Assembly: GCA_036821485.1 (NCBI GenBank)
Contig: DAISJM010000002.1
Location: 3,771 to 67,770, forward strand
Reading direction: 5' to 3'
Source: Verrucomicrobiota bacterium
Lineage (GTDB): Bacteria; Verrucomicrobiota; Kiritimatiellia; CAIQIC01; JAGNIJ01
DNA length: 64,000 nucleotides
This document shows, one piece after another, positions 2,410 through 63,620 of the stretch. The notes below the pieces were generated by a model. That model saw nothing but the letters and a program-made list of their open reading frames with translations, ran no database searches and was not told the origin of the DNA. How positions within the stretch are numbered: position 1 is the stretch's first letter; every line of letters starts with the position of its first letter. Position numbers and translations under genes: made by a program.

Positions 2410-4839
2410 TTAAACTTCCGTCTCGTCGGTCGGATTCTGCGGAATCTCTCCGTCGAGGTCGATCAGAATTTCCCGCGGATCCGAACCACACGGCGGGCCA
2501 ACAACCCCGCGCTGCTCCAACAGGTCCATCAACCGCGCCGCCCGCGTGTACCCAATCCGCAGCCGCCGCTGCAGCGACGAGGTGGACGCCCGCTTCGTCT
2601 GGCGGATAATCTCGATTGCCGAATCAAGCAGGTCATCCTCCCCCATATCGGGCAAGTCGGGGGCGTTGCTGTCCATCTTGTCCTTGATGGTGTTTTCGTA
2701 CTGCGGCTGCCCCTGCTTCTTGATGAAATCGACGATTCTCCGCATCTCCGCGTCCGTGGTCATCGTGCCCTGCGCGCGGGTCAACTTGCCGCTGCCCGGC
2801 GGCAGAAAGAGCATATCGCCCTTGCCCAGAAGCTTGTCGGCACCGTTGGCATCGAGGATCGTGCGGCTGTCCACCTTCTGCGCCACCTGGAAGGAAATAC
2901 GCGCCGGGAAGTTCGCCTTGATCGTGCCGGTGATGACATTCACCGACGGCCGTTGTGTGGCGAGGATCATGTGGATGCCCACCGCACGCGACAACTGCGC
3001 GAGCCGGGCAATCCCGGTCTCGATTTCCGCCTGCGCCACCAACATCAAGTCCGCCAGCTCGTCCACCACGATCACGATGTATGGCAGCCGGTCCGGCGGC
3101 TCATCGCTCGGCTTCTCAGCCTCGCCCGGCGCGCCCTCGAAAAGTTCGGTCTGCTTCAGAATCGGCCGGGTGTTGTAACTCTTGATGTTGCGCACACCGA
3201 CCTTCGCGAAAAGCTTGTAGCGCTTCTCCATCTCGTTGATCGCCCAGCGCAGTCCGATGCTGACCTTCTTCGGATCGGTGATGACCGGAACGACCAGGTG
3301 CGGCAGGTGGTTGTAGGTGGAGAACTCGACGATCTTCGGGTCGATCAGCATGAGGCGCAGCTCGTCAGGCGTGCGCGACATCAGCAGGCCCGTCAGGATG
3401 GAGTTCATGCAGACCGTCTTGCCGGAGCCGGTCGCACCCGCGATCAGCATGTGCGGCATCTCCGCCAGGTCCGCCACAATCTCGTGACCGCCCACGTCCT
3501 TGCCGATGGCCAGCGGCAACGCGGCCTTCCCGCTCTGCCACGTTGCGCTCTCGATGAGCTCGCGCAGGAACACCACCGTCGTCTTCGAATTCGGCACCTC
3601 GATGCCGACCACGCCCTTGCCGGGAATCGGCGCCTGCACGCGGACGCTCTCCGCCTTCATCGCCAGCGCGATGTTGTTGCCGAGCGCGACGATCTTCTCC
3701 AGCCGCACGCCCGGCGCCGGCAAGAGCTCGTACCGCGTAACCACGGGGCCGCGCTCGACATTCGTCACGTCGACCTCGATACCGAACTCTGCAAAAGTCT
3801 CCTTCAGCACCACCGCACTGGCTTGGAAATCGCCGCGAATTTCCCGGTCCTTTTCAGGCGGTAACGGGTCCAGCATGGAGACGGGCGGCAGTTTGAAGGC
3901 AGAATTGGTCTGGCTGAAGAGGGGCTCCGGGTTGACGGGTTCCGGCGCGCGGACCGGCTTCGGACGTTCCTTCTTCGGCGGAGGCGGCAACTCCTCGACC
4001 TCTTCCTCCACCTCGGGAATCTCCGGCTCGGGCACCGCTCGCGCACCCCGTCCGGGCGTGATGATAACCGCCGGCCGAATGGCGGGTTTTTGCACAGCCG
4101 CCTCGCGCTCAGCCTTCTCCTGCTCTTGCTCGCGCATGACGTCTTCCAAACGCCGGCGCTGCTTCTCAACCTTGCGCTGCTCCCGCTCAATCTGCGACCG
4201 TTCATCGCGGTGCTCCGCGATCTTCTCATCCACCTTCTTAAACAGCGCCACGGCCAGCACCCCAATCGCGTGCGCAATCTGGAGAGGATGAATCTCGATG
4301 AAAAGAATCAGGCTGATCGCCAACAACGACGCCGCGATAATGCCCGTGCCCACCGTACCCAGCCACCGCACCAGCATTTCATCGGTCAGAAAGGACCCCA
4401 CCACACCACCCGGCCCGCAGGTGTTAAGCTTCTCCACAACCCCTTCCCACGCACCGGGTTGTAAATCGAAGATACAAAGCAGCGCCAAGAGCATCACGGT
4501 CAGCCAAACCGCCTTCGGCCAAACGCGCCCCTCGCGTTTGAAAATGAGGAGCAGGCCGATGATCATCAGCCCCGCCGGCAACAGATAGGCCCCAATGCCG
4601 AGGGCCATGAAGAAGAAGAAGGCAGTCCACGCGCCCACAGGACCGATGAAATTCTCGGCAGGCCGGTTTGGCGGCGATTTCAGCAGGGGAATATCGCCCG
4701 GTGCATAGGAAAACAGGCTGAGAAGAAACAGGAGGGCCACCGTCACCAGCAAAATGCCCCAAGCCTCCCGCCACCCGGTTCTAGCTATTTCCTTCCTTAC
4801 CGCCATGGCCGTACAAAATAGCAGTACCCCACGCCTCAA
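2410..4839 (-). CDS. ftsK: DNA translocase FtsK (FtsK/SpoIIIE family)
   Basis: 809 aa; N-terminal polytopic membrane domain, Pro/Glu-rich linker, ATPase core with Walker A GATGSGKT, and a C-terminal gamma winged-helix ...[29 protein letters not shown]. Confidence 0.96.
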   Translation of the reverse strand: [809 protein letters not shown]

Positions 4840-4940
4840 GCAAGCGCGACCGCAACGACCGTTGGGGCTTCAGTATGGCAGACTTCGATGCCAAGACCTT
4901 CGACCATTACGACAGGGTCAATAGCGGCTTGGCGCGACGA

Positions 4941-5228
4941 TTACCCGAAGGACGGAGCTGTGGCAGTCGTCCACAGGAATCCGCCTGATGGATTGATGCA
5001 TGAGAAGTAGATGAGGAAGGACCGCAGGAGGCTGACATCGGTGATGGCCATGTACTCATCCAAGTTCCCCGCCGCATCGTAGGAACAGAGGACCTTTGAC
5101 TCACCGCCGTAGTCGGCCTGCACCAACCGGTATTGAGCGTCGTAGCTATACTTGACCGTTGTCCCCGCCTCCGCGGCAAGAACACAACCTAGCAGCACGA
5201 TCCCCACTAACCACCAACGCTTGTTCAT
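4941..5228 (-). pseudogene. signal-peptide plus YD-repeat N-terminal fragment (RHS/YD family gene remnant)
   Basis: MNKRWWLVGIVLLGCVLAAEA (signal peptide) followed by two YD repeats (YSYDAQYRL..., SYDAAGNL), then unrelated low-complexity sequence and a stop after about 95 aa. Far too short for an intact YD-repeat protein. The upstream in-frame extension to 5360 is unlikely to be coding. Confidence 0.5.
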
Positions 5229-5310
5229 GAACCCCCCTTCGCAAGCTTCATGCTTCTCTTTTTTTTGCAGGCTAACTTCGCCTATTCGACATCCAAGGAC
5301 CGCCCCCGCA

Positions 5311-5883
5311 CTAGAGAGGGATGCAAAAGGGTATGAAGTGCCGGTACTTCTTTTCTTCAAACTTCAACGTCTTCTTCTCCCCCCAACATGACAGCTCTAC
5401 CTCAAGTCTCCCGTCCCGGACTACACCACCCTCAAGCCTCACTGACAATATTGTGCCGCGGAAGATCTCTGTCTCTTGAACGGATGACGGAGCGACAGCA
5501 GCCCCATCAATCTTTTCAAAGATGACATCTCCCAGCCCACCGGAATGCACAAGCTTGAGGATATTCGTTTCGTGAGGGGGATACAGAGCCTTATCGGTCA
5601 TCGGCACAATCGGTATGAAAGCAGGCCCCACCCAACTCATACGATCAGCCAGAACAGGATACACCACAACCTCATTGGTTGTCCCCATAACGAATTCATA
5701 TAGAGGAGGCTTATACTGCCCAAATGAGGGCTCTCTGCTGCGAGTATGCCACCCCCCTTTTTCCACCACATGAAAGCCATCCTCTAAATGCACAAGCGTC
5801 AGGTAATCGGCCGAATCCACGACAGAACACCCGCCCACCAAGCAAACCAGTACACAGGCCGCAGCCAGAACGAGTCTATTCAT
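5311..5883 (-). CDS. hypothetical lipoprotein
   Basis: MNRLVLAAACVLVCLVGGCS has a lipobox LVGGC; about 190 aa with no recognisable domain. The apparent upstream extension in the ORF track is encoded by the transposon inverted repeat and is rejected. Confidence 0.6.
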   Translation of the reverse strand: MNRLVLAAACVLVCLVGGCSVVDSADYLTLVHLEDGFHVVEKGGWHTRSREPSFGQYKPPLYEFVMGTTNEVVVYPVLADRMSWVGPAFIPIVPMTDKALYPPHETNILKLVHSGGLGDVIFEKIDGAAVAPSSVQETEIFRGTILSVRLEGGVVRDGRLEVELSCWGEKKTLKFEEKKYRHFIPFCIPL

Positions 5884-5905
5884 CACCACCACCCTGACAC
5901 CCTTT

Positions 5906-5931
5906 GGGGTCAGACCTACAAATAACAAATA
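5906..5931. repeat. left terminal inverted repeat of the transposase element
   Basis: Exact reverse complement of 6988-7013. Confidence 0.85.
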
Positions 5932-5934
5932 GGC

Positions 5935-6945
5935 TCATTCCAGCACCCCGAGGCTTCTCTCCGCCTGCTCCAACTTCCGCCGCAGCCCCTTGTCTGTCTT
6001 GACCAGCCGATCCGTTCGCCTCACCTGCCAACTGACCGCCGATCCCCACTGGAGCCCCAGCTCCCGCGCCACCTCCCGTTGCGTCAACCCGCTATGCCGA
6101 CTCAGCAACAGCGCCGCCAGCCCCCGCGCGCCCTGCCCCCTGCTCCGACAGCCAATCTCCTCGACAGGCACCCCCATCACCTGCGACACCGTCTTCAGGA
6201 CTCTCCTCGGCGCCACCGCCACCACCTGCCTTCGAAACGTCGTATCCTCCGGCCTCTTCAACCTGCCAACCTGTTCCGCCCCCACCTCCCGCATTCTCTC
6301 CATGAATCCCTCTCCGCCGATCCCCTCACTCGCCCCCTTCACCAACTTCTGGACTTCCTCGTCCGTCTTTGCCAACCCCTGTTCCACATACTTCCGGTAC
6401 GCCGAAGGCCTCCGCCCTTTCTGCCCCGCCAACTGTGCCAGCACCGGCCCCATCTCCAATCCCTCAATCGCCCTTGCCCTCCCCGCATAGGCCGGGTAGC
6501 TGCTCCAGCGATAGCCCCGCAAATACCGAACCTGCTCTTTTAGCGGCCTTTTCTCGATCTCCCCGACATGCACCGGGTTCAAGTGTACATACCGGCTCAG
6601 TTTCAGCAGGTACTCATCCCCCTCCACCGGCTTTCCCCCAAACCGACCCTGCAACAGATGTCCCACCCGCCGGTGCCTCTTGTTGAAGTACATCGTATAC
6701 GCCGTCATCAGCGACTGCATGAATCGGCTGATATTGGCCCCCGGTGTCTCCACCAGCAGATGCACGTGATTGTTCATCAGGCAGTACAGGTACAGCCTCA
6801 CCCCGTGCTTCCCTGCCTGCTCGCTCAACTGATCTAGGAACCGCCCACGATCCCCGTCATCCCGAAAGATATCCTGCCTCCCGTTCCCCCGAACGGTCAC
6901 GTGGTAGATCGCCCCCTCGAACACAATCCTTAGTTTTCTCGCCAT
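5935..6945 (-). CDS. IS200-like HUH (Y1) transposase fused to a DnaA C-terminal-like HTH domain
   Basis: 336 aa; the HUH motif is NHVHLLV; the catalytic Tyr helix AYTMYFNKRHRRVGHLLQGRF fits the IS200/RayT pattern; the C-terminal ~90 aa (SQVMGVPVEEIGCRSRGQGARGLAALLLSRHSGLTQREVARELG) resembles DnaA domain IV. Confidence 0.85.
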   Translation of the reverse strand: MARKLRIVFEGAIYHVTVRGNGRQDIFRDDGDRGRFLDQLSEQAGKHGVRLYLYCLMNNHVHLLVETPGANISRFMQSLMTAYTMYFNKRHRRVGHLLQGRFGGKPVEGDEYLLKLSRYVHLNPVHVGEIEKRPLKEQVRYLRGYRWSSYPAYAGRARAIEGLEMGPVLAQLAGQKGRRPSAYRKYVEQGLAKTDEEVQKLVKGASEGIGGEGFMERMREVGAEQVGRLKRPEDTTFRRQVVAVAPRRVLKTVSQVMGVPVEEIGCRSRGQGARGLAALLLSRHSGLTQREVARELGLQWGSAVSWQVRRTDRLVKTDKGLRRKLEQAERSLGVLE

Positions 6946-6986
6946 ACCCGCCTTCCTACCACCCCTTGCCCTCTCCGTCCACCCTC

Positions 6987-7466
6987 TTATTTGTTATTTG
7001 TAGGTCTGACCCCGGAAAGATCGGAAAGATTGCTTGCAGATCTACTCCCAAAGCTACTGAGTATCAGGCGCCCAAGGGAGGTCATCGTGGCCCACCCAAC
7101 ACCAAGAATGAAAATATTGCTGACAGCAGCATTCACGTAATCGAACACGTTGAAGTTCACAAAATCCTTGCTGTTCACCGGATTGGCAAGGAGAGCTAGA
7201 AGGCATAGCGGAGGAAAGCCCAGGAAAAGAACAAGCCCTGTTACGGCACCGACCGCGCGCTGTGCGAATGATGCAACTCTGAGAGAACAGAATATGAACA
7301 CGAGTCCCGACAACGCGGCGAAGTACAGGAAAACGGGATATCCTTCGGCAAAGAAGAACCCGATCGCGTTCTCTCTTTGGCTTTGCAGCGGGATGCTGGC
7401 AACGACGGAGATAGACGCCACACAACACACAATCGCAGAACCCAGTCTTAGCCTTTCAGTACTCAT
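6987..7466 (-). CDS. small 4-TM membrane protein, candidate RHS immunity protein; 3' end modified by the transposon insertion
   Basis: Starts 10 nt after the stop of the RHS C-terminal gene on the same strand. Four predicted TM helices. The final codons GVRPTNNK and the stop are encoded by the right inverted repeat. Confidence 0.55.
   Translation of the reverse strand: MSTERLRLGSAIVCCVASISVVASIPLQSQRENAIGFFFAEGYPVFLYFAALSGLVFIFCSLRVASFAQRAVGAVTGLVLFLGFPPLCLLALLANPVNSKDFVNFNVFDYVNAAVSNIFILGVGWATMTSLGRLILSSFGSRSASNLSDLSGVRPTNNK
6988..7013. repeat. right terminal inverted repeat of the transposase element
   Basis: Exact reverse complement of 5906-5931; it overlaps the last 8 codons and stop of the upstream 4-TM ORF. 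Confidence 0.85.
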
Positions 7467-7475
7467 CTCAGCACT

Positions 7476-8903
7476 CTATGGGAAGGAAGCCCGAATCACG
7501 GTGTTGGCGCTCGAAGTTGAGGATACGGAACCCCTCGATCCACGGGCTCCAATCGATATTGCTCCGCCATTCACTGGCGCGAGAAACACGCTGCGGGATA
7601 TTTCATTGGGGGTCGTCTGGGAGTCATGAACAATGGGCACCCCCGCAGCACGCAGACCGTCCGCCACAAGAGAACCACAGGTATACTCACTGCCATCAGA
7701 GGACTGAATACCGACTATCGCACCATAGTCATACCCGCCGAAGGTGCCTCCAACAAGAGCCTGCCCCGCAAATTTAAGAAGCCCAGCTTCATCAACCGCG
7801 CCGTTTGGTCGCATGATTTGGAATGTCTTCCCGTCCAGACTGTCCGGGGCATCAATAACAACACCGTCGCCAGGACGAGCCGTTAGAATACCATCCTGCA
7901 CCCTAATGCCAACATGCCCATACACATCTCCGGGAGTATTTGCATCTGCAGTGAAAATAGCGATGATCCACTGAATGATATTGTTATCGACATAGAGATA
8001 CACATCCCCAACCCGTCCCTGCGCCCAACTCTCCCCCCACCCCCACGGGTCGATGAAGTTCACCGGATCGCCGTGGCAGTAGGCGTACAGATTCAACCCG
8101 CCCGGAAGGCCAATCGGATCTTTCGTGAGCCACCGTCTCAGGTCCGCCGCGTAGTACCGCGCTTTGATGTAGTACAGCGACCCACCCTCGTGATACGCCC
8201 CATACCCGCCCCCGAACGTATACGGCGTCTCCACCCCGCCTGCCTGATCCAGCACTTCTCCGTACGGCGAATAGGCGTACTCCGCCACCACCGCCCCGTT
8301 GGTGTCCGTCAGCGCCAGCGTCGACCCCTGCTCATCCGCGTGGAAGTAGTACACCGCTCCGTTTGTTTCCACCTGCGCCAGCAGCCCCCGCGCGCCCCAG
8401 ATGTAGTACCGCACCGGCAGCCCGTTCGTGTCCGCCTCCATCAGCACGTTGTGCAGCGCCGCGCCACGATCCAGCACGAAATGCCGGGTGCCTTGCAGGG
8501 AATGCCGGGTCACCCGATCCCCCAACCCGTCGTATTCATAGGCGCTGGCCGTTCCCTCGTTCACCACGTTCGTCATCCGATTGTCGTGGTCGTATCCCAT
8601 CGCCAGCCCCATCCCGTTGGAGACCAGGTTCCCATTCGGATCGAAGTAGAAGGCGTTGGTCGTCCACGCCTCATCACCCGGGGCCGCAACACGAAGCGTC
8701 TGCGAAAGCCGATCGGCCCCGTCGAAGGTCATGCACTCCACCTTCGGCTGCAGGTCCCCCACCCGCCCCGCCACGATCTCCTCTTCCATCTTAAGCCCCA
8801 GCCCGTCCCGCGTAAATACCCGTTCCAGAAATGCCGTGGCACCGAGAATATAGGAGAATCCCGCCAGCCTCTGTGTATCGTCCCATTCAAACACCCCGGC
8901 CAC
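7476..8903 (-). CDS. 5'-truncated RHS/YD-repeat protein (orphan C-terminal fragment) with a variable C-terminal toxin domain, possibly a permuted papain-fold (LRAT / NlpC-P60-like) enzyme
   Basis: Multiple YD repeats (YEYDGLGDRV, YYFHADEQGSTLALTD, YAYSPYGEV). RHS core end RYYAADLRRWLTKDPIGLPGGLNLYAYCHGDPVNFIDPWG (DPxGL-type). A ~190-aa C-terminal extension with GDVYGHVGIRVQDG (like the LRAT His box) and YTCGSLV (like the NlpC/P60 YDCSGLV Cys box). The ORF opens with GTG directly after an in-frame TAA, so the N-terminal ~1000 aa of a normal RHS protein are missing. Confidence 0.8.
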   Translation of the reverse strand: MAGVFEWDDTQRLAGFSYILGATAFLERVFTRDGLGLKMEEEIVAGRVGDLQPKVECMTFDGADRLSQTLRVAAPGDEAWTTNAFYFDPNGNLVSNGMGLAMGYDHDNRMTNVVNEGTASAYEYDGLGDRVTRHSLQGTRHFVLDRGAALHNVLMEADTNGLPVRYYIWGARGLLAQVETNGAVYYFHADEQGSTLALTDTNGAVVAEYAYSPYGEVLDQAGGVETPYTFGGGYGAYHEGGSLYYIKARYYAADLRRWLTKDPIGLPGGLNLYAYCHGDPVNFIDPWGWGESWAQGRVGDVYLYVDNNIIQWIIAIFTADANTPGDVYGHVGIRVQDGILTARPGDGVVIDAPDSLDGKTFQIMRPNGAVDEAGLLKFAGQALVGGTFGGYDYGAIVGIQSSDGSEYTCGSLVADGLRAAGVPIVHDSQTTPNEISRSVFLAPVNGGAISIGARGSRGSVSSTSSANTVIRASFP

Positions 8904-10089: not shown

Positions 10090-11135
10090 TGCAGAACACA
10101 TTGTTCATCGTAATCCCGACCCTGGCCGTCATACTCGCCGCCGCATGGTGGATACGCCGCAGCATCCTGGCCGCCATCGCCAAGCCGCGCGACGACCAGT
10201 CGTTCGCCCTCCTCCAGAACCAGGTCAACGCCCTCAACACGCAGGTGGCGCAGGCCCTCGACAACACGCGGAAATCGATGGACGAGCGCCTCGACAACGC
10301 CGCGCGCGTCATCCAGGGCGTGAGCAAACAGCTCGGCCAACTCGACGAATCGTCCCGCCGCATTTTCGATATCGGCAAGGATATGGCCAGTCTGCAGGAA
10401 GTGCTCCGCTCGCCGAAGCTGCGCGGCAATATCAGCGAGCTGTTCCTCGAAGACCTCCTCGCGCAGATCCTGCCGCCGGACCATTACAAAATCCAGCACG
10501 CCTTCCGCGGCGGCGAAACCGTCGATGCCGCCATCGTACTGAAAGCCGGACTCGTTCCGGTGGACGCGAAGTTCCCCCTCGAGAACTTCCGGCTCGTGGT
10601 GGCTGCCGCAGACGATGAAGCGCGCAAGATCGCGCGGAAAACCTTCCTGCGCGATGTTAAAATCCACATCGATGCGATCGCCCAGAAATATATCCGGCCC
10701 GACGAGGGTACATTCGATTTCGCGCTGATGTACATCCCGGCCGAAAATGTCTACTACGAGACGATCATCAAGGATACCGACGGCACCGCGGACTTCTCCC
10801 TGTTCAACTACGCCCTCTCGAAACGCGTCATTCCCGTTTCGCCGAACAGCTTCTACGCCTACCTGCAGACCATTCTGCTCGGCCTGAAAGGCATGAAGGT
10901 GGAGGAAAGCGCGCGCGACATGCTCAACGCACTGGCCGCGTTGCACAAGGATTTCGAGCGGTTCGAGGAACCGTTCCGGCTCATCGGGAAGCATCTGGAG
11001 AACTCGCTCAAGCAGTTCGCCGACGCGGATAAGCGGCTCGGGAAACTCACGGGCCGCATGGAGCAAATCGACAGCGCCACCAAGGGCCTCAACGCACCAG
11101 AGGTTCCGCCTGCGATCCACGGCTCCCCGGAATGA
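10090..11135 (+). CDS. rmuC: DNA recombination protein RmuC
   Basis: Start at MQNTLFIVIPTLAVILAAAWW (N-terminal TM), coiled-coil region, and conserved RmuC C-terminal domain (...FDFALMYIPAENVYYE...). The track ORF has a spurious N-terminal extension to 9963. Confidence 0.85.
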
Positions 11136-13554
11136 TCGCCCCGGCCGACTCTGCATCGCGCCACGGTTTCGAGTCCTTGTAGCTCTCCACCATCTTCGCG
11201 AGCGTTGAGCCCGGCGCAAGCTCCTGCGCCCGCCCAGCCAGTTTCACAGCAGCTCCGAATTCGCCCACTTCGGCATGCGCCGCAGCTCGGACCGCCAGCA
11301 CCAGAGGATCCTTCTTATCGCTCAACCAGCCGGCCCGGTCCGCAAGTCGTACCGCCTCGGCGCCATTACGAACAGCGTCCTCCCGACACGTGGCGCGAAT
11401 CCACCCGAGAGCCACCAAGGCCGACGTCTGGTACGGAAGGTCCTGTAAGACATTCTCATACAGGTCGGCCGCTTCACGAAACTTGCCGCGCCGGACCAGG
11501 AGATCGGCCAACTTCTCCTTTGCACGCGCGAAGTGAGGCAACTCCTTCAACACAGCTTCGAGTCCATCACGCGCATCGTCCAACGCGCCCACGGCCAGCG
11601 CCAGCATCGCGCGGTTGTACAAGCCCTGCACGTTGCGTGGATGCTCGCGCACCACGCGCTCCAGCAAGGCGTAGGCATCGTCGAACCGGCTCATCGATGT
11701 GAAACTGCCCGCCAGGTTCACCTGCGCATCGACGTTCCGCGGATTAAGCTGCAGCGCGCGTTCGAAGAACGGCACGCTTGCGGGAATCGATCCAAGCCCC
11801 GCCAGCCTCGCCCCCACGCGGACAAAATCCCGATCGCGCCCACGCTTATCCACGCCCTCTTCCAAGGTTTGGAGAGCGGCGCCCCGGTCGCCCGCGCGCG
11901 CCTGCGCCTCCGCCAGTTGGAGCTTCAGATCGTGACACCACGGCGCGATTTCGCCGGCCGACTGCAGCACGGGTACCGCCGCCGCACCATCTCCGACGTC
12001 CATCAACAACCGCGCAAAATTCTGCCGCATCATCCAATCGTCGGGCCGCGCGGCCATCGCGCGTTGGTAAAGGTCCCTTACTTCATCGCCGCCCGCAGGC
12101 CGGGCCGCCCGCGCCTTCTCCTGCCACAGGTACACCGCTTCCTCGTTGAAGGCCTGCCGGATAAACGGCGCCCGCTTTGATCGCTCGCAAATCTCCAGGT
12201 ATGTCTTCGCTTCATCCGCGGCCGAAAACGCGATCTGTTCCTTGCACGCGTCCATCGACGGGACTGCATCCGACCCACCCAACCCCAACAGCAAGCCCAC
12301 GCCATCCAGCAGCCGCGATGCCACCCGGTAGTTGCCCTCGAACGAGAAATGTACGTGATCGAGGAAGACACCGTCCCCCAGCAACTCGGGGTCCTCGGTC
12401 AGGTTCAGCAAGGCGAATCGCGGCCGCGAGCAGTCGGACACCGCGAAGATGATCTCGTTGATCCGCGTATCGGCCCGAAACCGCAGCGCATCGAGATCAC
12501 GCGCCGCCTCATATTCCGCCATCGCGTCCTGCCCCAGTCGCTCCATGCACCGCGCACGACGATAGCGCAGCTCGGCATATTCATCATCCAAGCGACTCGC
12601 CTCATCATACGATTTCAGCGCGTCCTTCCAGTCGGCAGATGCCTCGCAGCTGGTTCCATCCGCCCACGCTTTTCCCCACGCCGCGAGGTCCGCTGCGGCC
12701 AGCCCGCGGCGATGCTGCGACGCAAACGGCGGACACACGCGCAGGTTCACCGCGACGGTGCACAGCAACACCCCTGCTTTTGCATCGCCGGCGAAACTCA
12801 TAATGTCGCGCAAGTTCGATTCAAAATGGCTGTAGGCCGCCTCCAACGCGGGATCGTCATGAGCCACCAGCGTCTGCGAAAACATCGAGAGCCCTTCCCA
12901 TTCCGGCAGGCCCCGATCGCCCTTCGCAAGCTGCACGCCGGCGTCGAGCAACTGCCCCACGCGCGTCGCGCGATAGAACATATTCGCGCGGATATACGGC
13001 AGGCTACCCGAGAACGTGCGGAACGTGGTCCCCGGCCCGTACGGCCCGAGGATCTCGTTGTTGCCCATGTAGATAACGAAGAGGTCCGGCTCCGCCTGGG
13101 CACAGGCACGCGCAATCTCACGCACCGCATGCGAGTTGATCGCCGTCATCGCGACATTGACCAGTTCCACCTGCGCGTCCGGATAACGCTCGCGGAGCAT
13201 CACGTCCAATATCCGCGTGAAACTGTAATTGCCGGCAGGGTCGCCAAGCGCCGCCGATTCGCCCAGCACAAAGACGCGGCGGACGCCTGCCGGTTTCGGG
13301 GTTTGCAGGGCCAAATCGAGCGGCGCGCGCGCAATGGCCCGCGGAAAGAACCGCCAGCCGAAACGCTCGTTGACGTGCAACACAGTCCTGCCGTCTGCCA
13401 GCCGCATCGGTACCAGAAAAGCCGAGGGATATCCCCATCCCGCGATGCGCAGCCCAATTTCGAGACAGCCCACCACCAAAGCCGGGGCGAGCAGCGCCAG
13501 AAGCGCCCGCTTGGCCCAAATTGCACCGCGTCCTGTCCGTCCGCCTGTCGTCAT
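11089..13554 (-). CDS. SGNH/GDSL-hydrolase-like N-terminal domain fused to a long TPR-repeat region
   Basis: 821 aa. N-terminal signal anchor, VFVLGESAALG and YMGNNE motifs typical of SGNH hydrolases, and many TPR-like repeats in the C-terminal two thirds. Its 3' end overlaps the rmuC 3' end by ~47 bp (convergent). Confidence 0.7.
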   Translation of the reverse strand: MTTGGRTGRGAIWAKRALLALLAPALVVGCLEIGLRIAGWGYPSAFLVPMRLADGRTVLHVNERFGWRFFPRAIARAPLDLALQTPKPAGVRRVFVLGESAALGDPAGNYSFTRILDVMLRERYPDAQVELVNVAMTAINSHAVREIARACAQAEPDLFVIYMGNNEILGPYGPGTTFRTFSGSLPYIRANMFYRATRVGQLLDAGVQLAKGDRGLPEWEGLSMFSQTLVAHDDPALEAAYSHFESNLRDIMSFAGDAKAGVLLCTVAVNLRVCPPFASQHRRGLAAADLAAWGKAWADGTSCEASADWKDALKSYDEASRLDDEYAELRYRRARCMERLGQDAMAEYEAARDLDALRFRADTRINEIIFAVSDCSRPRFALLNLTEDPELLGDGVFLDHVHFSFEGNYRVASRLLDGVGLLLGLGGSDAVPSMDACKEQIAFSAADEAKTYLEICERSKRAPFIRQAFNEEAVYLWQEKARAARPAGGDEVRDLYQRAMAARPDDWMMRQNFARLLMDVGDGAAAVPVLQSAGEIAPWCHDLKLQLAEAQARAGDRGAALQTLEEGVDKRGRDRDFVRVGARLAGLGSIPASVPFFERALQLNPRNVDAQVNLAGSFTSMSRFDDAYALLERVVREHPRNVQGLYNRAMLALAVGALDDARDGLEAVLKELPHFARAKEKLADLLVRRGKFREAADLYENVLQDLPYQTSALVALGWIRATCREDAVRNGAEAVRLADRAGWLSDKKDPLVLAVRAAAHAEVGEFGAAVKLAGRAQELAPGSTLAKMVESYKDSKPWRDAESAGAIIPGSRGSQAEPLVR

Positions 13555-13667: not shown

Positions 13668-14546
13668 ATGACGACTCCGATCATAGCTTTTGCAAATCAA
13701 AAGGGCGGCGTGGGCAAGACCACCACGGTCGTCAGCCTGGCCGCGTGCCTCGCCGAACGGCGCAAGAGGATACTCCTCGTCGACCTCGACCCGCAGGCCA
13801 ATGCCACCAGCGGCCTCGGCATGGAGAAGGTCGAGGGCCAAAGCATCTACCACGCACTCCTCGGCGAGAGCCCCGCGGAACCTCTCATCAAGTCCACCGC
13901 CATGGAGCGGCTCGACATCATCGGCTCGGAAGTCGATCTCGCCGGCGCGGAAGTGGATATCGCCCGCTCCGACCGATATCTGCATCGCTTCAAGGAAACG
14001 ATCACTCCTGTCGCCGACAGCGGCCGCTACGATTACATCTTCGTCGACTGCCCGCCCTCGCTGGGCATCCTGACCATGAACGCATTGACCGCCGCCGAGT
14101 CCATCATCATCCCTCTGCAGTGCGAATACTTCGCGCTCGAGGGCCTGAGCGTGATCACCCGACTCGCCGAGCGGCTGCGCGACAGCGGCGCCAACCCCGG
14201 GCTGCGCGTGGAAGGCATTGCGATGACGATGTACGACATGCGGACGAACCTCTCCCAGCAGGTCGTTCAGGAAGTGGTCTCCCATTTCGGCAATCTCGTC
14301 TACGAAACGCTCATCCCACGCAGCGTGCGCCTCAGCGAAGCACCGAGTTTCGGCAAGCCCATCATCCTCTACGACCGCAACTGCACCGGGTCCGCAGCCT
14401 ATCGCCAACTCGCCCGCGAATTTCTCGACCGTCGACGCATGGGAATCCCGGGCATGCCGGAAGAAGAAATCGTCGAGGAAGAATCCGAGCCCGTTGAGGA
14501 ACAGCCGGCAGAATCGCCGGCCGAAGACCAGCCGCCGGCGCAATAG
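13668..14546 (+). CDS. parA: ParA/Soj-family partition ATPase (orphan, no adjacent parB) with acidic C-terminal tail
   Basis: MTTPIIAFANQKGGVGKTTTVVSLAA... has the deviant Walker A KGGVGKTT. Soj-like throughout. The C-terminus is EEEIVEEESEPVEEQPAESPAEDQPPAQ. The alternative upstream ATG at 13629 is less likely. Confidence 0.85.
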   Translation: MTTPIIAFANQKGGVGKTTTVVSLAACLAERRKRILLVDLDPQANATSGLGMEKVEGQSIYHALLGESPAEPLIKSTAMERLDIIGSEVDLAGAEVDIARSDRYLHRFKETITPVADSGRYDYIFVDCPPSLGILTMNALTAAESIIIPLQCEYFALEGLSVITRLAERLRDSGANPGLRVEGIAMTMYDMRTNLSQQVVQEVVSHFGNLVYETLIPRSVRLSEAPSFGKPIILYDRNCTGSAAYRQLAREFLDRRRMGIPGMPEEEIVEEESEPVEEQPAESPAEDQPPAQ

Positions 14547-14566
14547 GCGGCCGCCGCGCCACACAT

Positions 14567-14647
14567 TTTTCCAATGATTGGAAAAATGGCATTCAGATTT
14601 TCCAACCCTTGGAAAAACAGCGACAGAATTTTCCAAGGGTTGGAAAA
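14567..14647. promoter_or_regulatory. three tandem copies of the 19-bp palindrome TTTTCCAA-N3-TTGGAAAA at 31-bp phasing
   Basis: 14567-14585 TTTTCCAATGATTGGAAAA; 14598-14616 TTTTCCAACCCTTGGAAAA; 14629-14647 TTTTCCAAGGGTTGGAAAA, which is the exact reverse complement of copy 2. They lie in the convergent gap between the parA stop (14546) and the def stop (14648). Confidence 0.6.
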
Positions 14648-15208
14648 TCAGCCCGTCTCGAGCGCCTCGCGCGTTTCCTTCTTCAGCCGCTTGAGTTGAC
14701 CGGACAACGCGATGCGCTTGATGCGCGACATGCGGTCCACGAGAAGCACGCCGTTGAGATGATCGATTTCGTGTTGCGCCACGCGGGCCACGAATTTCTT
14801 CAACCGCAGTTCCTGCGGCTTGCCTTTGAGATCCAGAAATTGAACCGTCACTTCGACCGACCGCGACACCGGCGCATATATATCGGGGAAGCTCAGGCAC
14901 CCCTCGTCGGCCACTTCCTTCTCGCCTGAAAAATCGGTGATCTTCGGATTGACCAGCACCAGCGGCATCGTCACGCCCGGATTGAGTACAACCCCATCTT
15001 CGGAACGATCCATCTCCAGCGGCACTTCGATGACGCAAATCGCGTCGGTACTTCCCACCTGCTGGGCAGCCAACCCGACTCCCCGCTCGAGCCGCATGGT
15101 CTCGATCATATCCTTCGCCAGCGTGCGAATGTTGTCGTCCACCTCGCGAACCGGGACCGCCGGCTCTCGAAGGACCTCGTCGCCATACGTATGGATAGCC
15201 TTCTTCAA
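14648..15208 (-). CDS. def: peptide deformylase
   Basis: 186 aa with the conserved motifs GVGLAAQQVG, EGCLSFP and QHEIDHLNG. Confidence 0.95.
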   Translation of the reverse strand: MKKAIHTYGDEVLREPAVPVREVDDNIRTLAKDMIETMRLERGVGLAAQQVGSTDAICVIEVPLEMDRSEDGVVLNPGVTMPLVLVNPKITDFSGEKEVADEGCLSFPDIYAPVSRSVEVTVQFLDLKGKPQELRLKKFVARVAQHEIDHLNGVLLVDRMSRIKRIALSGQLKRLKKETREALETG

Positions 15209-29886: not shown

Positions 29887-30570
29887 ATGAAGAAAACCGA
29901 CTCACATGACAATCGGAAGGCGCGCATCCTGGTGATCGACGATCACTCCGTCGTCCGTCACGGCCTGGCTGCCCTGCTCGCCGGAGAAAAGGATATGACC
30001 ATCTGCGGCGAGGCGGCTACCTACGAAGAAGGACTCGCCGCTGCGCTGGAACTGCGGCCCGACATGATGCTGGTCGATATCGTACTCAAGGACCGCAGCG
30101 GCCTGGATCTGATCCGCGACGCGCGCGAGAAGGGTTTCGAAGGCTATTCGCTTGTACTCTCCATGCACGACGAGACCACGCACGCGGAGAAGGCGCTACG
30201 CGCCGGCGCGCAGGGCTACGTGATGAAGGAAAACGCCGACGAGGTCATCGTGGGAGCCATCCGCGAGGTGCTGCGCGGCGAACTCTATTTCAGTGAGCGT
30301 GCCTCGGAACAAATTCTGCGGCAAATGATCGAGAACCCGCCGGGCGAAACGCCGGAGCATGGCGTGGAGAGCCTGACCGCGCGCGAAAAGGAAGTTTTCG
30401 TTTGCATCGGCGAAGGTCTATCCACAAAGAAGATCGCGGAGAAACTCGAATTGAGCGCGCGGACCGTGGAAGTGCACCGCGCACACATCAAGCACAAGCT
30501 GCAGTGCGAAGATGCGGCACAGGTGTTCCGCGAGGCCGTACGCTGGGTCGAACAGCAGGCCGGGAATTGA
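29887..30570 (+). CDS. response regulator, NarL/FixJ (LuxR-type HTH) family
   Basis: REC domain (ILVIDDHSVVRHGL...D...K) plus a C-terminal LuxR HTH (LTAREKEVFVCIGEGLSTKKIAEKLELSARTVEVHRAHIKHKL). Confidence 0.9.
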   Translation: MKKTDSHDNRKARILVIDDHSVVRHGLAALLAGEKDMTICGEAATYEEGLAAALELRPDMMLVDIVLKDRSGLDLIRDAREKGFEGYSLVLSMHDETTHAEKALRAGAQGYVMKENADEVIVGAIREVLRGELYFSERASEQILRQMIENPPGETPEHGVESLTAREKEVFVCIGEGLSTKKIAEKLELSARTVEVHRAHIKHKLQCEDAAQVFREAVRWVEQQAGN

Positions 30571-30577
30571 TGTCCAT

Positions 30578-31243
30578 ATGAACCCGATTATCCTCAAGTC
30601 GCTATTGATCCTCGCCGCCTATCTCCTGGGCGCCGTCCCAATCGGGCTGCTGCTCGCACGCATGAAAGGCGTGGACATCCGTACCGTGGGCAGCGGCAAT
30701 ATCGGTGCAACCAATGTATTCCGATCCGTCAGCAAAGGATTGGGCATCCTGACGTTCGTGGGTGACGCCGTGAAGGGCTTTGTGCCAGCGTTCGTTTTTC
30801 CAATCCTTGGAAAATACCTCTTCGGAACTCTCCAAGGTTCGGAAATCGGCATCCTGTGCGGGTTCGCCGCCATCGCCGGACACAACTGGCCCGTCTTCCT
30901 TCGCTTCAAGGGCGGCAAAGGCATCGCCACCAGCGCCGGAGTACTGCTTGGCATCGCTCCTGCCGCCGTCGGCATCGGTCTCGCTGCGTGGATACTCCTC
31001 TTTGTCATCAGCCGGTATGTGTCCGTGGCGTCCATCGGCGCTGCCCTTGCCGTGCCAGCCGCATCGTGGATCATGTATCTCCCCCGGGGGCTTTTGCTCC
31101 CCTCTGTCCTGACCCTGCTGGGCTTGATCGCCGTGTGGCGTCACAAATCCAACATCCAGCGGCTCCTCAACGGCACCGAGCATCGGTTCCAGTTTGGGAA
31201 GAAGCCCAACGAAAGCACATCTGGATCAACACATCAGAACTGA
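30578..31243 (+). CDS. plsY: glycerol-3-phosphate acyltransferase PlsY
   Basis: MNPIILKSLLILAAYLLGAVPIG...GSGNIGATNV...GHNWPVFLRFKGGKGIATSAG. Confidence 0.9.
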   Translation: MNPIILKSLLILAAYLLGAVPIGLLLARMKGVDIRTVGSGNIGATNVFRSVSKGLGILTFVGDAVKGFVPAFVFPILGKYLFGTLQGSEIGILCGFAAIAGHNWPVFLRFKGGKGIATSAGVLLGIAPAAVGIGLAAWILLFVISRYVSVASIGAALAVPAASWIMYLPRGLLLPSVLTLLGLIAVWRHKSNIQRLLNGTEHRFQFGKKPNESTSGSTHQN

Positions 31244-41334: not shown

Positions 41335-41766
41335 TCATCCAGCGGACGGCAACCCCGTACGCCAGAGAATTCCGGGAATCCCGGCAAAGTGCCGGTCGTG
41401 GCTGATGATCTCTGCGTGGATCGATTGCGCGCAGACGGCAATGGCGAGATCGGTAAGCGGCAACACCCGGCCCTTACGGTCCAACTTCCACGCCAGATTC
41501 GCCACAGCTTCCCAAATAGCCGCGGTGGTCTCCACGGAGGGAATGAGATCGAAGAACTCCTCCATCTCCGACCGGACTGCCGGGTTAATGACCCCCCGGA
41601 TGACTTCCGCCCGGATCAGGCCGCAAGACGCCAGCGCCCCGGACTGGACATAGGGCGCCAGCATTCTGACGGGACTGTGACCACGCCTCATCCAGTCGAT
41701 ATAGACCGTGGAATCAACGAGCAGAACGGCCACGAGGCGTCTCCCGGTTGCGCATGGCGACCACAT
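41335..41766 (-). CDS. vapC: type II toxin VapC (PIN-domain ribonuclease)
   Basis: ...VAVLLVDSTVYIDW...PLTDLAIAVCAQSIHAEIISHDRHF. The true start is probably a few codons inside and overlaps the vapB stop. Confidence 0.8.
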   Translation of the reverse strand: MWSPCATGRRLVAVLLVDSTVYIDWMRRGHSPVRMLAPYVQSGALASCGLIRAEVIRGVINPAVRSEMEEFFDLIPSVETTAAIWEAVANLAWKLDRKGRVLPLTDLAIAVCAQSIHAEIISHDRHFAGIPGILWRTGLPSAG

Positions 41767-41953
41767 CGTACTTCGGGTCCACGGCGGACTTGTATTCCGT
41801 TTCGCGGACCGCGCAGGTCAGCAGCTTCTTCAACCGTGCCGCGCGCTCAGCTTCGGTCAACGCGTAATCCACCGCGGCCTTACGCGTCTTGAGACCCGCC
41901 ACCTGCATCACGCGCTTGAGCTTGGCCTCATCGATATCAATCGTGGTCTTCAT
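41714..41953 (-). CDS. vapB: type II antitoxin VapB (DUF2191 / RHH-like)
   Basis: MKTTIDIDEAKLKRVMQVAGLKTRKAAVDYALTEAERAARLKKL...; overlaps vapC. Confidence 0.8.
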   Translation of the reverse strand: MKTTIDIDEAKLKRVMQVAGLKTRKAAVDYALTEAERAARLKKLLTCAVRETEYKSAVDPKYDVVAMRNRETPRGRSAR

Positions 41954-42028
41954 ACGGGAAATGATACGGCAGATGCTGCCGTACTTCAAGCCGTATTACG
42001 GAGTCTCGCGACGGTTACTGCGGATGGC

Positions 42029-61815: not shown

Positions 61816-61864
61816 ACTCCCGGGTTTGCGGTATATTTCCAATGCTTGGAAAAAAGGAGGCGGG
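61816..61864. promoter_or_regulatory. two copies of the TTTCCAA-N3-TTGGAAAA palindrome at 30-bp spacing in a divergent promoter region
   Basis: 61816-61834 TTTCCAATGCTTGGAAAA; 61846-61864 TTTTCCAACCATTGGAAAA; these end ~45 bp upstream of the ATG at 61911. Confidence 0.6.
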
Positions 61865-61910
61865 GTTTTCCAACCATTGGAAAATCCGTCGCCCACGGCA
61901 GCAGGTGACT

Positions 61911-63620
61911 ATGAATCACAATCCGATGGATGTAACCGTCACGTTCGAGGACGGCCGCAAGACAACATGCCCGGCCGGTACGCCGCTCAAGGTGCTCATG
62001 AAGGAGCGCCGCACGCCTCAAGGCCTGGATTACCTCGGCGCGCTGGTGAACAACGATGTGGTCTCCCTCTCCTACCCGCTCGAAGTCGACAGTGAAATCA
62101 AGTTCCTCACGCTGGCCGACTCCCACGGTCAGCGCATCTATCGCCGCTCCGCCTCGTTCATCCTCGCCAAGGCCGTGCGCGAGCTTTATCCGCAGGCCCG
62201 CTTTTCCGTCGAGCATTCGCTGGGCGATAGCTTCTACTGCAGCTTTGACATGAACGGCTCGGTGGCCAACCACAACGGCAACAATCACAACGATCATCCC
62301 GTCACCCAGGAACAACTCGACGCGATCGAACGCCGCATGCGCGAACTGGTCACACGCAACATTCCCATCGAGCGCCGGAAAATATCCTTCACCGAGGCAA
62401 TGAAGCAGTTCGAAACCGAGCAGCAGATGGACAAGTACAACTTGCTGCGCTTCCGCAACCCACCGAAGATCGTGATCTTCTGGTGCGAGGGATTCTCCGA
62501 TCTCGGTCATGGCCCGCTCGTCGAAAGCACCGGCGCCGTCCGCACCTTCAAGCTCATCCCCTACCCGCCCGGTTTCGTCATCCAGTTCCCGGAAAAGGAA
62601 AAGCCGGCGGAGCTTTCCCCGTTTGAGCCGCAGCCGTACCTGTTCCACATTTTCAAGGAACACAAGGAATGGGGCCGCATTCTCGGCGTCAACACCGTCG
62701 GCCGCCTGAACGAAATCATCGCGAATCGAGAGATCGGCGACTTCATCAAGATCGCCGAGGCGTTCCACGAGAAACGCATCGCGCGCATTGCGGACGACAT
62801 CCAGGGCAACCGCGACCGGATCAAGTGGATCCTCATCGCCGGGCCTTCCTCCTCAGGCAAAACCACGTTCGCCAAGCGGCTTGCCGTTCAGCTCCGCGTC
62901 AACGGCCTGCAGCCGGTCACGATCTCCGTCGACAACTACTTCGTGAACCGCGAGCAGACGCCGCGCGACGAAAAGGGCGATTACGACTTCGAGAACATCG
63001 AGACGATCGATCTCGCCCTCTTCAACGACCACCTGAAGCGTCTCGACGAGGGCGGCGAAGTCGACGTGCCGCACTACGATTTCGGAACAGGCACACGCGA
63101 ATATCGCGGCGAGAAGCTGCACATCGCCCACGGCCAACTCGTGCTGGTGGAAGGCATTCACGCGCTGAACCCGAAACTGACGGAGTCGGTGCCCACCGAA
63201 CACAAGCTGCGGATTTATGTCAGCGCGCTGACCCAGCTCAACCTCGACTTCAACAACCGGATATCTACCACCGACAACCGGCTCGTGCGGCGGCTCGTGC
63301 GCGACAACGCCTTCCGCGGCAACTCGGCGCTGACCACGCTCTCGATGTGGCCCAATGTGCGCCGCGGCGAGAAGACGTGGATCTTTCCGTTCCAGCAATA
63401 TGCGGATATCGCCTTCAACTCGGCGCTGGACTACGAGCTCGCGGTGCTGAAGCCTTCGGTCGAACCCCTGTTGGCAGAAGTGAAGCCCAACCAGCCGCAA
63501 TACGCGGAAGCGCGGCGCATGCAGGATTTCCTCGCGAGTTTTCTGAGCGTGTCGGACCACCTGGTTCCGCCGACGTCGATCCTGAGGGAATTCATCGGCC
63601 GCAGCAGTTTCCGCTACTGA
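61911..63620 (+). CDS. TGS-domain (ThrRS N-terminal-like) protein fused to a uridine kinase / phosphoribulokinase-family nucleoside kinase
   Basis: N-terminal TGS-like domain (MNHNPMDVTVTFEDGRKTTCPAGTPLKVL...); C-terminal P-loop kinase ILIAGPSSSGKTTFAKRL...VSVDNYF...LVLVEGIHAL, typical of Udk/PRK. Confidence 0.8.
   Translation: MNHNPMDVTVTFEDGRKTTCPAGTPLKVLMKERRTPQGLDYLGALVNNDVVSLSYPLEVDSEIKFLTLADSHGQRIYRRSASFILAKAVRELYPQARFSVEHSLGDSFYCSFDMNGSVANHNGNNHNDHPVTQEQLDAIERRMRELVTRNIPIERRKISFTEAMKQFETEQQMDKYNLLRFRNPPKIVIFWCEGFSDLGHGPLVESTGAVRTFKLIPYPPGFVIQFPEKEKPAELSPFEPQPYLFHIFKEHKEWGRILGVNTVGRLNEIIANREIGDFIKIAEAFHEKRIARIADDIQGNRDRIKWILIAGPSSSGKTTFAKRLAVQLRVNGLQPVTISVDNYFVNREQTPRDEKGDYDFENIETIDLALFNDHLKRLDEGGEVDVPHYDFGTGTREYRGEKLHIAHGQLVLVEGIHALNPKLTESVPTEHKLRIYVSALTQLNLDFNNRISTTDNRLVRRLVRDNAFRGNSALTTLSMWPNVRRGEKTWIFPFQQYADIAFNSALDYELAVLKPSVEPLLAEVKPNQPQYAEARRMQDFLASFLSVSDHLVPPTSILREFIGRSSFRY

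Follow-up and report, generated by a model that had tools for sequence, protein, structure and literature searches.

Why a gap between two converging genes should hold three evenly spaced palindromes is the question raised by the parA-def region of a Kiritimatiellia genome, which lies within the 64,000-nucleotide stretch of contig DAISJM010000002.1 analyzed here (hereafter, the window). The gap measures 101 bp (14547-14647), one more than the 100 bp given in a first-pass annotation of this DNA, which had its convergent orientation right. Our pattern search of the 64-kb window located three exact copies of TTTTCCAA-N3-TTGGAAAA, at 14567, 14598, and 14629, which bears out the annotated 19-bp palindromes and the 31-bp spacing of their starts. 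We hold it moderately probable that this array belongs to a family of predicted high-affinity sites recognized by a sequence-specific DNA-binding protein, a family that many Kiritimatiellia lineages carry and others lack.

A dispersed palindrome family with quantized spacing

The array, its flanking genes, and the other copies in the window are as follows (palindromes and spacers are given without a strand):

13668-14546, + strand: parA, Soj-like, orphan (Pfam AAA_31/CbiA; AAA_31 at 1.6e-56)
14567-14585: palindrome copy 1, TTTTCCAA-TGA-TTGGAAAA, exact match
14586-14597: spacer 1, 12 bp (ATGGCATTCAGA), length constrained and sequence free
14598-14616: palindrome copy 2, center CCC, exact, 31 bp from copy 1
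14617-14628: spacer 2, 12 bp (ACAGCGACAGAA)
14629-14647: palindrome copy 3, center GGG, reverse complement of copy 2, exact match
14648-15208, - strand: def, peptide deformylase, convergent neighbor (Pfam Pep_deformylase, 2.2e-50)
30796-30814: single exact palindrome within plsY, with the in-frame reading F-P-I-L-G-K, inside the G3P_acyltransf domain
61835-61853: palindrome with one mismatch, opening the doublet that precedes the nucleoside-kinase gene
61866-61884: exact palindrome, 31 bp from the 61835 copy, ending 26 bp before ATG 61911
61911-63620, + strand: nucleoside kinase, with a tRNA_SAD/ThrRS-like N-terminal region and a uridine kinase/PRK region (Pfam PRK, NCBIfam udk)

Copy 1 begins 20 bp past the parA stop codon, the two spacers of the array are unrelated to each other, and copy 3 is, as had been noticed from the letters, the exact reverse complement of copy 2. 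The overlap of copy 3 with the def stop codon needs correcting, in that its core ends at 14647 and abuts that codon (14648-50), into which a 21-bp version of the palindrome would extend by one base. The parA-def gap showed no sigma-70-like promoter, in agreement with the earlier remark that the array has no promoter to serve, and the announced recurrence of the motif at two other places in the window was recovered at 30796 and at 61835/61866. In total, the window holds six palindromes at up to two mismatches, where dinucleotide-preserving shuffles predict 0.01 and none of 100 shuffles reached six; permitting three mismatches added just one, doubtful, copy at 11858. Moreover, all six TTGGAAAA octamers and all five TTTTCCAA octamers of the window fall within full palindromes. 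An identical array is present on the metagenome-assembled genome (MAG) GCA_964523715.1 and on several metagenome contigs that match the window. In a metagenome variant of the same species (L004), the first base of copy 3 has changed from T to A (position 7334), the sole difference among eight sequences over the 161-bp aligned region.

An exact-pattern scan of one genome per species across 185,579 species returned at least 120 loci. Around 100 of the 120 loci listed come from ∼50 Kiritimatiellia-type genomes, many of which contribute several copies, and the carriers listed are labeled as Kiritimatiellae, Kiritimatiellales, Pontiella, Pontiellaceae, Tichowtungia, or, loosely, as 'Lentisphaerae', 'Verrucomicrobia', or Planctomycetes-Verrucomicrobia-Chlamydiae (PVC) MAGs. 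Among the carriers are GCA_964523715.1, GCA_052033915.1, GCA_035913195.1, and the MAG LaPlata-15m-a_bin-260, whereas GCA_936417635.1 and the lineage of L329 probably lack the motif. The loci from other phyla among the matches listed number 20, each being a single copy in an unrelated genome and 17 of them lying below 50% G+C, as expected by chance; the motif itself is restricted to this clade. The same pattern gave 110 loci on viral contigs, of median G+C 0.36 and almost all singletons, and three G+C-rich viral contigs bear 31-bp-phased copies. One of these contigs (L269; IMGVR_UViG_3300035698_006241) carries three 31-bp-phased palindromes at 3427-3507 within one open reading frame (ORF) that has an XRE-like N-terminal segment, and, because 31 = 30 + 1, each is read in a different frame (DFPVVGK, EFSNHWK, and HFQSLEK); the phased copies on the other two lie near a terminase gene (L305) and on L322.

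The sampled density is about one cluster per 17-20 kb, with individual sites at ∼1 per 10 kb, and the genome-wide numbers (hundreds of copies per genome) are extrapolated from 8-kb blocks. As the loci were ascertained via exact matches, the share of perfect copies is overestimated, and two of the kinase loci described below (L327 and L328) show that degenerate arrays exist. Our literature search found no paper on the motif in a bacterial context and none linking Kiritimatiellia with such palindromes. This is apparently an undescribed cis-element family that spans the class Kiritimatiellia and occurs in many but not all of its lineages.

A logo of 234 sites (≤1 mismatch) showed that only the 16 arm bases are conserved, with a weak T before and a weak A after the core, and that spacer positions carry ∼0 bits. 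In 92% of these sites the central base is either C or G, and the center triplets form lineage-specific 'dialects' (TSA, GSC, or CCA/TGG). Arrays hold two to six sites, and the distances between neighbors are quantized; among the loci listed, they were 31 bp (70 cases), 32 bp (22), 22 bp (11), or 30 bp (4), with no neighboring pair at 23-29 or 33-41 bp, nor at any other distance under 42 bp. Each of the four 30-bp steps adjoins a 22-bp step, and the two together make 52 bp, or about five helical turns. Longer distances were few among the loci listed, namely 42, 53, 63 (twice), and 74 bp, along with five between 125 and 148 bp. Around exact sites, copies scoring ≥12/16 recur mainly ∼52-53, 62, 83-84, 93, 114, and 124 bp away, and a few lie near 42, 71-74, or 103-105 bp.

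Two apparent regularities were set aside. These were (i) a ∼10.4-bp ripple in the similarity profile, which is partly a by-product of the 31-bp period and the 11-bp half-site offset and was not used as independent evidence, and (ii) a pairing of neighboring centers resembling REPINs (hairpin-forming doublets of repetitive extragenic palindromic, or REP, sequences), in which the apparent excess of identical or complementary triplets is confounded by the genome-specific center dialects. At four loci from rumen MAGs (L033, L045, L097, and L113), arrays mix 22-bp and 30/31-bp steps, and the 11-nt spacers agree on a G+C-rich consensus (around ATCCGCCCG/CGGGCGGAT); it thus seems that this lineage propagates a composite unit.

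Genes around the sites were called with our own codon-bias gene caller, which matches nearly all public calls where the window overlaps locus L001. Among 145 clusters, 42 were called inside genes (∼30 of these well inside confidently called ones), and the others occupy tandem (56), divergent (16), and convergent (12) gaps or locus edges (19). Between 70 and 80% of clusters are intergenic in a sample in which 84% of the DNA is coding, a ∼ten-fold enrichment of sites between genes, and about 20-29% lie in frame inside genes, in all three frames. Many copies are located 0-12 bp past stop codons or 14-50 bp before start codons. The 71 genes with their 5' end toward a site represent 107 Pfam families, and the 63 with their 3' end toward one represent 98. 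Sulfatases are the sole recurring family among these flanking genes, which we take as background in a clade where this family is abundant, and all-against-all clustering of 333 neighboring proteins gave no recurrent family. A regulon defined by its neighboring genes was rejected in view of these diverse functions.

Conservation at orthologous positions

The first-pass annotation had named absence from the syntenic regions of close relatives as an outcome that would speak against a binding array. We found the opposite, namely sites kept in syntenic positions of several relatives, which argues against a REP family or one of miniature inverted-repeat transposable elements (MITEs). The parA-def array itself is kept in two of three syntenic relatives. 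In L211 (ParA 86% identical), three exact copies in 31-bp steps fill an 81-bp gap from stop codon to stop codon, and in L213 (ParA 76% identical, different assembly), two copies lie 31 bp apart, the first of them one base past the parA stop codon. The third relative, L209 (ParA 76% identical), lacks the array; there, a 128-aa HNH-endonuclease gene (10888-11274) fills the parA-def gap, and no motif remnant is seen. Between the window and L211, the core bases are identical at 48 of 48 positions, whereas the spacers are 62% identical, which is the level of the def third-codon positions (61%); because of this difference, we conclude that the cores are under strong purifying selection and that the spacers drift neutrally.

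The parA gene is a mere neighbor, with no functional tie to the motif. It is an orphan, as annotated, in the sense that no parB lies next to it in the window or in the relatives L209-L215; among the ParA loci fetched from outside Kiritimatiellia, the majority have ParB immediately after ParA. The motif is absent from the ParA relatives L209, L210, L214, L215, L129, and L130, and a metagenome scan with ParA gave for the most part unrelated loci that pair ParA with ParB (best identities 64% and 61%), and the motif was in none of them. The ParA proteins of the window lineage have an acidic, proline-rich C-terminal tail.

The most consistently conserved neighbor of the motif is the nucleoside-kinase gene, upstream of which copies occur in three of four independently fetched orthologous loci, as well as in L079, a locus found through the motif scan. 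Doublets or arrays lie just upstream of this gene in the window, in L326 (protein 77% identical, with a different upstream neighbor), and in L079. In L327 (kinase 71% identical), two phased degenerate copies were called, at 9866 and 9928 (a distance of 62 bp), and partial matches in the same phase could be recognized by eye at 9897 and 9959; L328 (72%) has a single 3-mismatch copy, and L329 (68%) has no copy in 21.7 kb. The degenerate orthologous copies of L327 and L328 break the pairing between the arms. An ATG in the loop of the 61835 palindrome (61842-61844) extends the nucleoside-kinase ORF, and at least one public gene call (the 592-aa P0241) uses the corresponding upstream start. ATG 61911, which is preceded by AGGTGA, is the likelier start, and the motif thus misleads gene callers in some annotations, where the ATG of a palindrome loop is annotated as the kinase start.

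Positional conservation across genera extends into a coding region. The plsY copy lies at the same codons in L039 (3456-3474), whose PlsY is 57% identical, and in both genomes the site is written in rare A/T-ending codons (TTT CCA xTT GGA ...), with a joint synonymous probability of 4e-5 in the window and 1.6e-3 in L039. The next gene after plsY is gpsA in both, and in the window plsY is closely preceded by a gene for a LuxR-type response regulator (29887-30570). Further, phosphoribosyltransferase orthologs (56% identical) in L029 and L080 both have sites directly upstream, and orthologous pairs of GH106 rhamnosidase and PstS-like genes also share their site positions. Where copies have degenerated, the arms have mostly done so without compensatory changes, as only 6 of 66 two-mismatch copies are compensated and the other 60 break arm pairing; this speaks for an element that acts as duplex DNA and not as a hairpin.

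A proposed dimer-binding site and its rivals

The symmetric 8+3+8 site, with arm centers one helical turn apart, suggests the footprint of a dimeric protein of the helix-turn-helix (HTH) type. Such a dimer would read the two 8-bp arms, TTTTCCAA and TTGGAAAA, whose centers are 11 bp apart, in successive major grooves. The restriction of the spacing to two or three turns, together with the free spacer sequence, points to dimers on neighboring sites that would touch on the same helix face, a contact that would be feasible only at two (22 bp) or three (31-32 bp) turns. The first-pass annotation had proposed cooperative sites for a dimeric protein, and that proposal gains support from (i) the spacing, quantized at 22 or 30-32 bp, (ii) the 16 conserved bases with free spacers, (iii) purifying selection at orthologous positions, and (iv) the independent decay of the arms in degenerate copies. 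Its alternative, the operator of a global regulator, is supported by the same evidence. The arrays are, most likely, predicted same-face sites for a dimeric, oligomerizing global regulator or nucleoid-associated protein, and we infer that this protein binds here, oligomerizes, and through its binding influences transcription.

Such a protein would act genome-wide, at the cluster density given above, as a global regulator or a nucleoid-associated protein. Since the sites are found in convergent gaps and coding regions no less readily than at promoters, a global or nucleoid-associated factor is likelier than a classical local regulator. The array upstream of the nucleoside-kinase gene is probably an operator. 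The parA-def array would more likely serve as a roadblock of bound protein, or an insulator, between converging units, or else as an architectural anchor. In the motif-free relatives L210 and L214, the place past parA is taken by a canonical bidirectional terminator, and a strict scan of the window detected no canonical terminator between its genes.

Several observations weigh against this picture of a family of protein-binding sites. To begin with, no binder was found; tblastn searches with E. coli Lrp, AsnC, NrdR, and ArgR and with B. subtilis ParB gave no homolog adjoining the sites. A Pfam scan of ten further window proteins yielded no DNA-binding regulator except a VapB antitoxin; a VapBC toxin-antitoxin pair (PIN domain plus VapB) lies at 41335-41989. 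Next, promoter-less gaps are occupied no more rarely than others (convergent 12/62, divergent 16/67, and tandem 56/394), and many sites abut stop codons, with 12 of 80 distances to facing gene ends lying within 2 bp of the stop; this is unlike a purely promoter-centered regulator. The motif is indeed, as the first-pass annotation had foreseen for an adverse outcome, a dispersed family that favors no type of gap. Moreover, most copies are perfect and number, by extrapolation, in the hundreds per genome, which is more typical of REP-like repeats or parS-like sites, classical regulons showing graded ones. The distribution among relatives is also patchy, with none in L128, L209, L210, L214, L215, and L329 (∼120 kb together). 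Finally, the spacers of some genomes have a loose shared consensus, such as TTTCnCGGAAA in LaPlata bin-260, which hints at the copying of a composite unit, and the quantized spacing could partly reflect duplication history.

Some of these same features would follow if the copies were selfish palindromes of the REP kind, or of the bacterial interspersed mosaic element (BIME) kind, spread via single-stranded hairpins by a Y1 transposase of the REP-associated tyrosine transposase (RAYT) type, with the arrays as BIME-like clusters; we regard such a REP-like, or formerly selfish, origin as improbable. The high copy number and the 70-80% intergenic share of the clusters fit it, as do the near-perfect copies in arrays of up to six, the many copies that abut stop codons, the within-genome spacer consensus of some genomes, the patchy distribution, and the presence of the motif on a few viral contigs. 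A hairpin-forming palindrome (8-11-bp stem) in many extragenic copies is present here as it is in REP families, and copies 2 and 3 together fold into a 21-bp hairpin that resembles a REPIN. A RAYT-like gene is also present in the window:

5935-6945, - strand: Y1_Tnp (RAYT-like), 336 aa, between 26-bp inverted repeats (GGGGTCAGACCTACAAATAACAAATA at 5906-5931 and its complement at 6988-7013)

That gene, however, has no link to the motif. The perfect 26-bp inverted repeats that bracket it are unrelated to the palindrome, which is not found there, and a copy 90% identical lies in another genome (L128), in an unrelated context and without the motif; the RAYT connection was rejected. The Pfam families listed for 134 flanking genes include no Y1_Tnp, and the window protein scores 60.9 bits against the REP-associated tyrosine transposase model, whose cut-off is 80 bits. 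Because of the 90% identical copy in an unrelated context, the unit 5906-7013 looks mobile. The protein has a faint C-terminal DnaA_C-like HTH (E = 0.18) and belongs to a family with >4,000 homologs of about 335-350 aa. Rhs/YD-repeat fragments at 4941-5228 and 7476-8903 flank the unit, and the stretch 4001-8000 has a G+C content of 0.569, lower than the 0.611 averaged over the window, as would suit a small mobile island.

The copies themselves also depart from what a mobile repeat predicts. They have no GTAG/CTAC head, the 234-site logo showing no flanking signal beyond the weak T and A. The same 16 bases recur across the whole class, and orthologous positions are kept at 50-77% identity of the flanking proteins, with spacers that change at the neutral rate; conservation of this kind, in sequence and in position, goes well past that of REPs. 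The in-frame copies inside genes, which use all three frames, could not be produced by a 19-bp insertion; coding DNA is not excluded, and the plsY copy is conserved in rare codons. Most degenerate copies, furthermore, have not maintained the pairing that a hairpin would need.

It is less probable still that the motif acts at the RNA level, as hairpins in untranslated regions that would be terminators, mRNA stabilizers, or sites for an RNA-binding protein or RNase. Given their positions just past stops or shortly before starts, many copies are probably transcribed, and the array region folds better than shuffled sequence (z = -6.4 and -7.1). On a strict scan, the intergenic regions of the window contain no canonical intrinsic terminator, and the motif-free relatives L210 (10932-10971) and L214 (10919-10958) have a canonical bidirectional one past parA, in which a G+C-rich hairpin lies between an A-run and a T-run. 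Compensated double changes are, in addition, mildly enriched (the 6 observed, as against ∼1.5 expected). However, the A/T runs of the palindrome are on the wrong sides for a terminator (5'-UUUU-stem...stem-AAAA-3'), with no U-tract; its stems have two G-C pairs of eight, rather than the G+C-rich stem of an intrinsic terminator, and single hairpins are weak, at -5.8 to -11.7 kcal/mol. Neither a terminator scan nor our own strict scan called the arrays, and the window gave no Rfam match at gathering thresholds and no tRNA. An RNA element would not account for spacers limited to exactly 3 or 11-13 nt, and it leaves unexplained the perfect two-strand symmetry, the copies in divergent promoter gaps, and those within genes. 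It also fits poorly with the 60 of 66 two-mismatch copies, and the orthologous degenerate ones, in which pairing is broken.

It is very improbable that the motif is a sequence tag left by a biased process rather than by local function, such as a DNA-uptake signal or 'self' mark comparable to the DNA uptake sequence (DUS), the uptake signal sequence (USS), or cyanobacterial HIP1. Conservation across the whole class, neighboring genes without functional enrichment, and copies both between genes and within them, where they arose by substitution, would suit it. But half-sites never stand alone in the window, and the cluster density is far below the ∼1 per kb of uptake sequences, which are short, single, non-palindromic words; nor would a tag explain the strict 22/31-32-bp phasing or the conservation at specific orthologous genes.

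The centromere role that the first-pass annotation had considered, which would make the array a partition site for the adjacent orphan ParA, bound by a ParB substitute, is the least probable reading. In its favor, the array lies directly past parA in three species, no parB is adjacent in the window lineage, and phased palindrome arrays are typical of plasmid centromeres such as F sopC. However, just 1 of ∼145 clusters in ∼50 genomes adjoins a ParA-family gene, the clusters of one MAG alone are scattered across at least 14 contigs, six ParA relatives have no motif, the arms are unlike parS, and the window has no origin signal, that is, no GC-skew switch and no DnaA-box cluster. A DnaA box or origin was likewise rejected as an identity for the motif, TTTTCCAA resembling TTATCCACA only in part.

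A site family read by a dimeric protein, which we prefer to these alternatives, also admits a more far-reaching form that we offer as speculation and think doubtful. It would be a chromosome-wide DNA-organizing system of Kiritimatiellia and not an ordinary regulon, in which a dedicated protein would form same-face oligomers on hundreds of near-perfect sites, those kept within genes by rare codons and those in promoter-less convergent gaps among them, shaping transcription-unit boundaries or nucleoid structure and possibly replacing ParB-type functions in a lineage with an orphan ParA. If the binding-site reading is true, a cis-element that has so far escaped description is present in an entire class of bacteria, one that is important for the breakdown of sulfated polysaccharides in oceans, sediments, digesters, and guts. 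The exact 16-base motif would be a handle for fishing out the partner protein, which is likely to be a leading global regulator or nucleoid protein in these bacteria, and the arrays would offer a natural test of how roadblocks of bound protein, or architectural sites, take the place of intrinsic terminators when a genome is rich in G+C.

Comparison with known binding systems

Like REP/BIME elements, the palindromes are short, number in the hundreds per genome by extrapolation, are mostly extragenic and often just past stop codons, and form regular clusters in which inverted pairs can fold into longer hairpins. They differ from those elements in (i) having no GTAG head, (ii) not flanking the local RAYT-like gene, (iii) having linkers that are not conserved across genomes, and (iv) being conserved class-wide and at orthologous positions, with in-frame copies in genes and arms that decay independently.

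ParB-family sites provide a second parallel. The sopC centromere is a phased tandem array of palindromes, and the sites of this family are, like the motif, near-perfect palindromes kept over large distances, in and between genes. The motif is, however, unrelated to parS (TGTTNCACGTGAAACA) or to the Noc-binding site (ATTTCCCGGGAAAT), its arms are split by N3 rather than contiguous, and its dispersed clusters, hundreds by extrapolation, contrast with a few near-origin sites; no ParB is encoded nearby.

The E. coli Lrp protein has a global, nucleoid-associated character. In the Lrp/AsnC (feast/famine) family, FL11 binds a 13-bp palindrome, and sites of the family are clustered so that adjacent dimers lie on the same face, with centers two or three turns apart (PMC2995911). 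The motif shares with this family its odd-centered palindromes in clusters, at spacings of 22 and 31-32 bp, and its palindromes do cluster at two or three turns on one face, there being only 22 and 30-32 bp below 42 bp. It differs in being longer (19 bp) and unrelated in sequence, and its mostly perfect 16/16 copies contrast with Lrp sites, which are 'quite degenerated'. No Lrp-family gene lies near any site; the sole tblastn match, in L069, is 4 kb from one.

NrdR boxes, with the consensus acaCwAtATaTwGtgt, are likewise unrelated to the motif in sequence. They are paired palindromes nonetheless, and NrdR tetramers require their two 16-bp boxes, 15-16 bp apart, to be separated by a whole number of turns, which makes 31-32 bp from center to center (PMC12051234); the length of the spacer is conserved and its sequence is not (PMC12051234). 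The motif has the same integer-turn spacing (31 bp in 70 cases and 32 bp in 22) and the same combination of conserved spacer length with free sequence, and some of its conserved targets are nucleotide-salvage genes (nucleoside kinase and phosphoribosyltransferase). In contrast to NrdR, which has a handful of sites per genome, all of them at nrd promoters, the motif occurs in extrapolated hundreds that include promoter-less gaps and coding regions. No ribonucleotide-reductase family is among the Pfam families listed for the flanking genes, and tblastn found no NrdR homolog in the fetched loci.

On this comparison, the motif would work in the manner of Lrp- and NrdR-type systems and yet appears to be a member of neither, because its sequence is unrelated, its mostly perfect copies number in extrapolated hundreds, and neither system has a homolog near the sites. 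The element joins the copy number and perfection of REP-like repeats and the helical phasing of Lrp- or NrdR-type sites to a positional conservation that crosses genera and includes a coding region.

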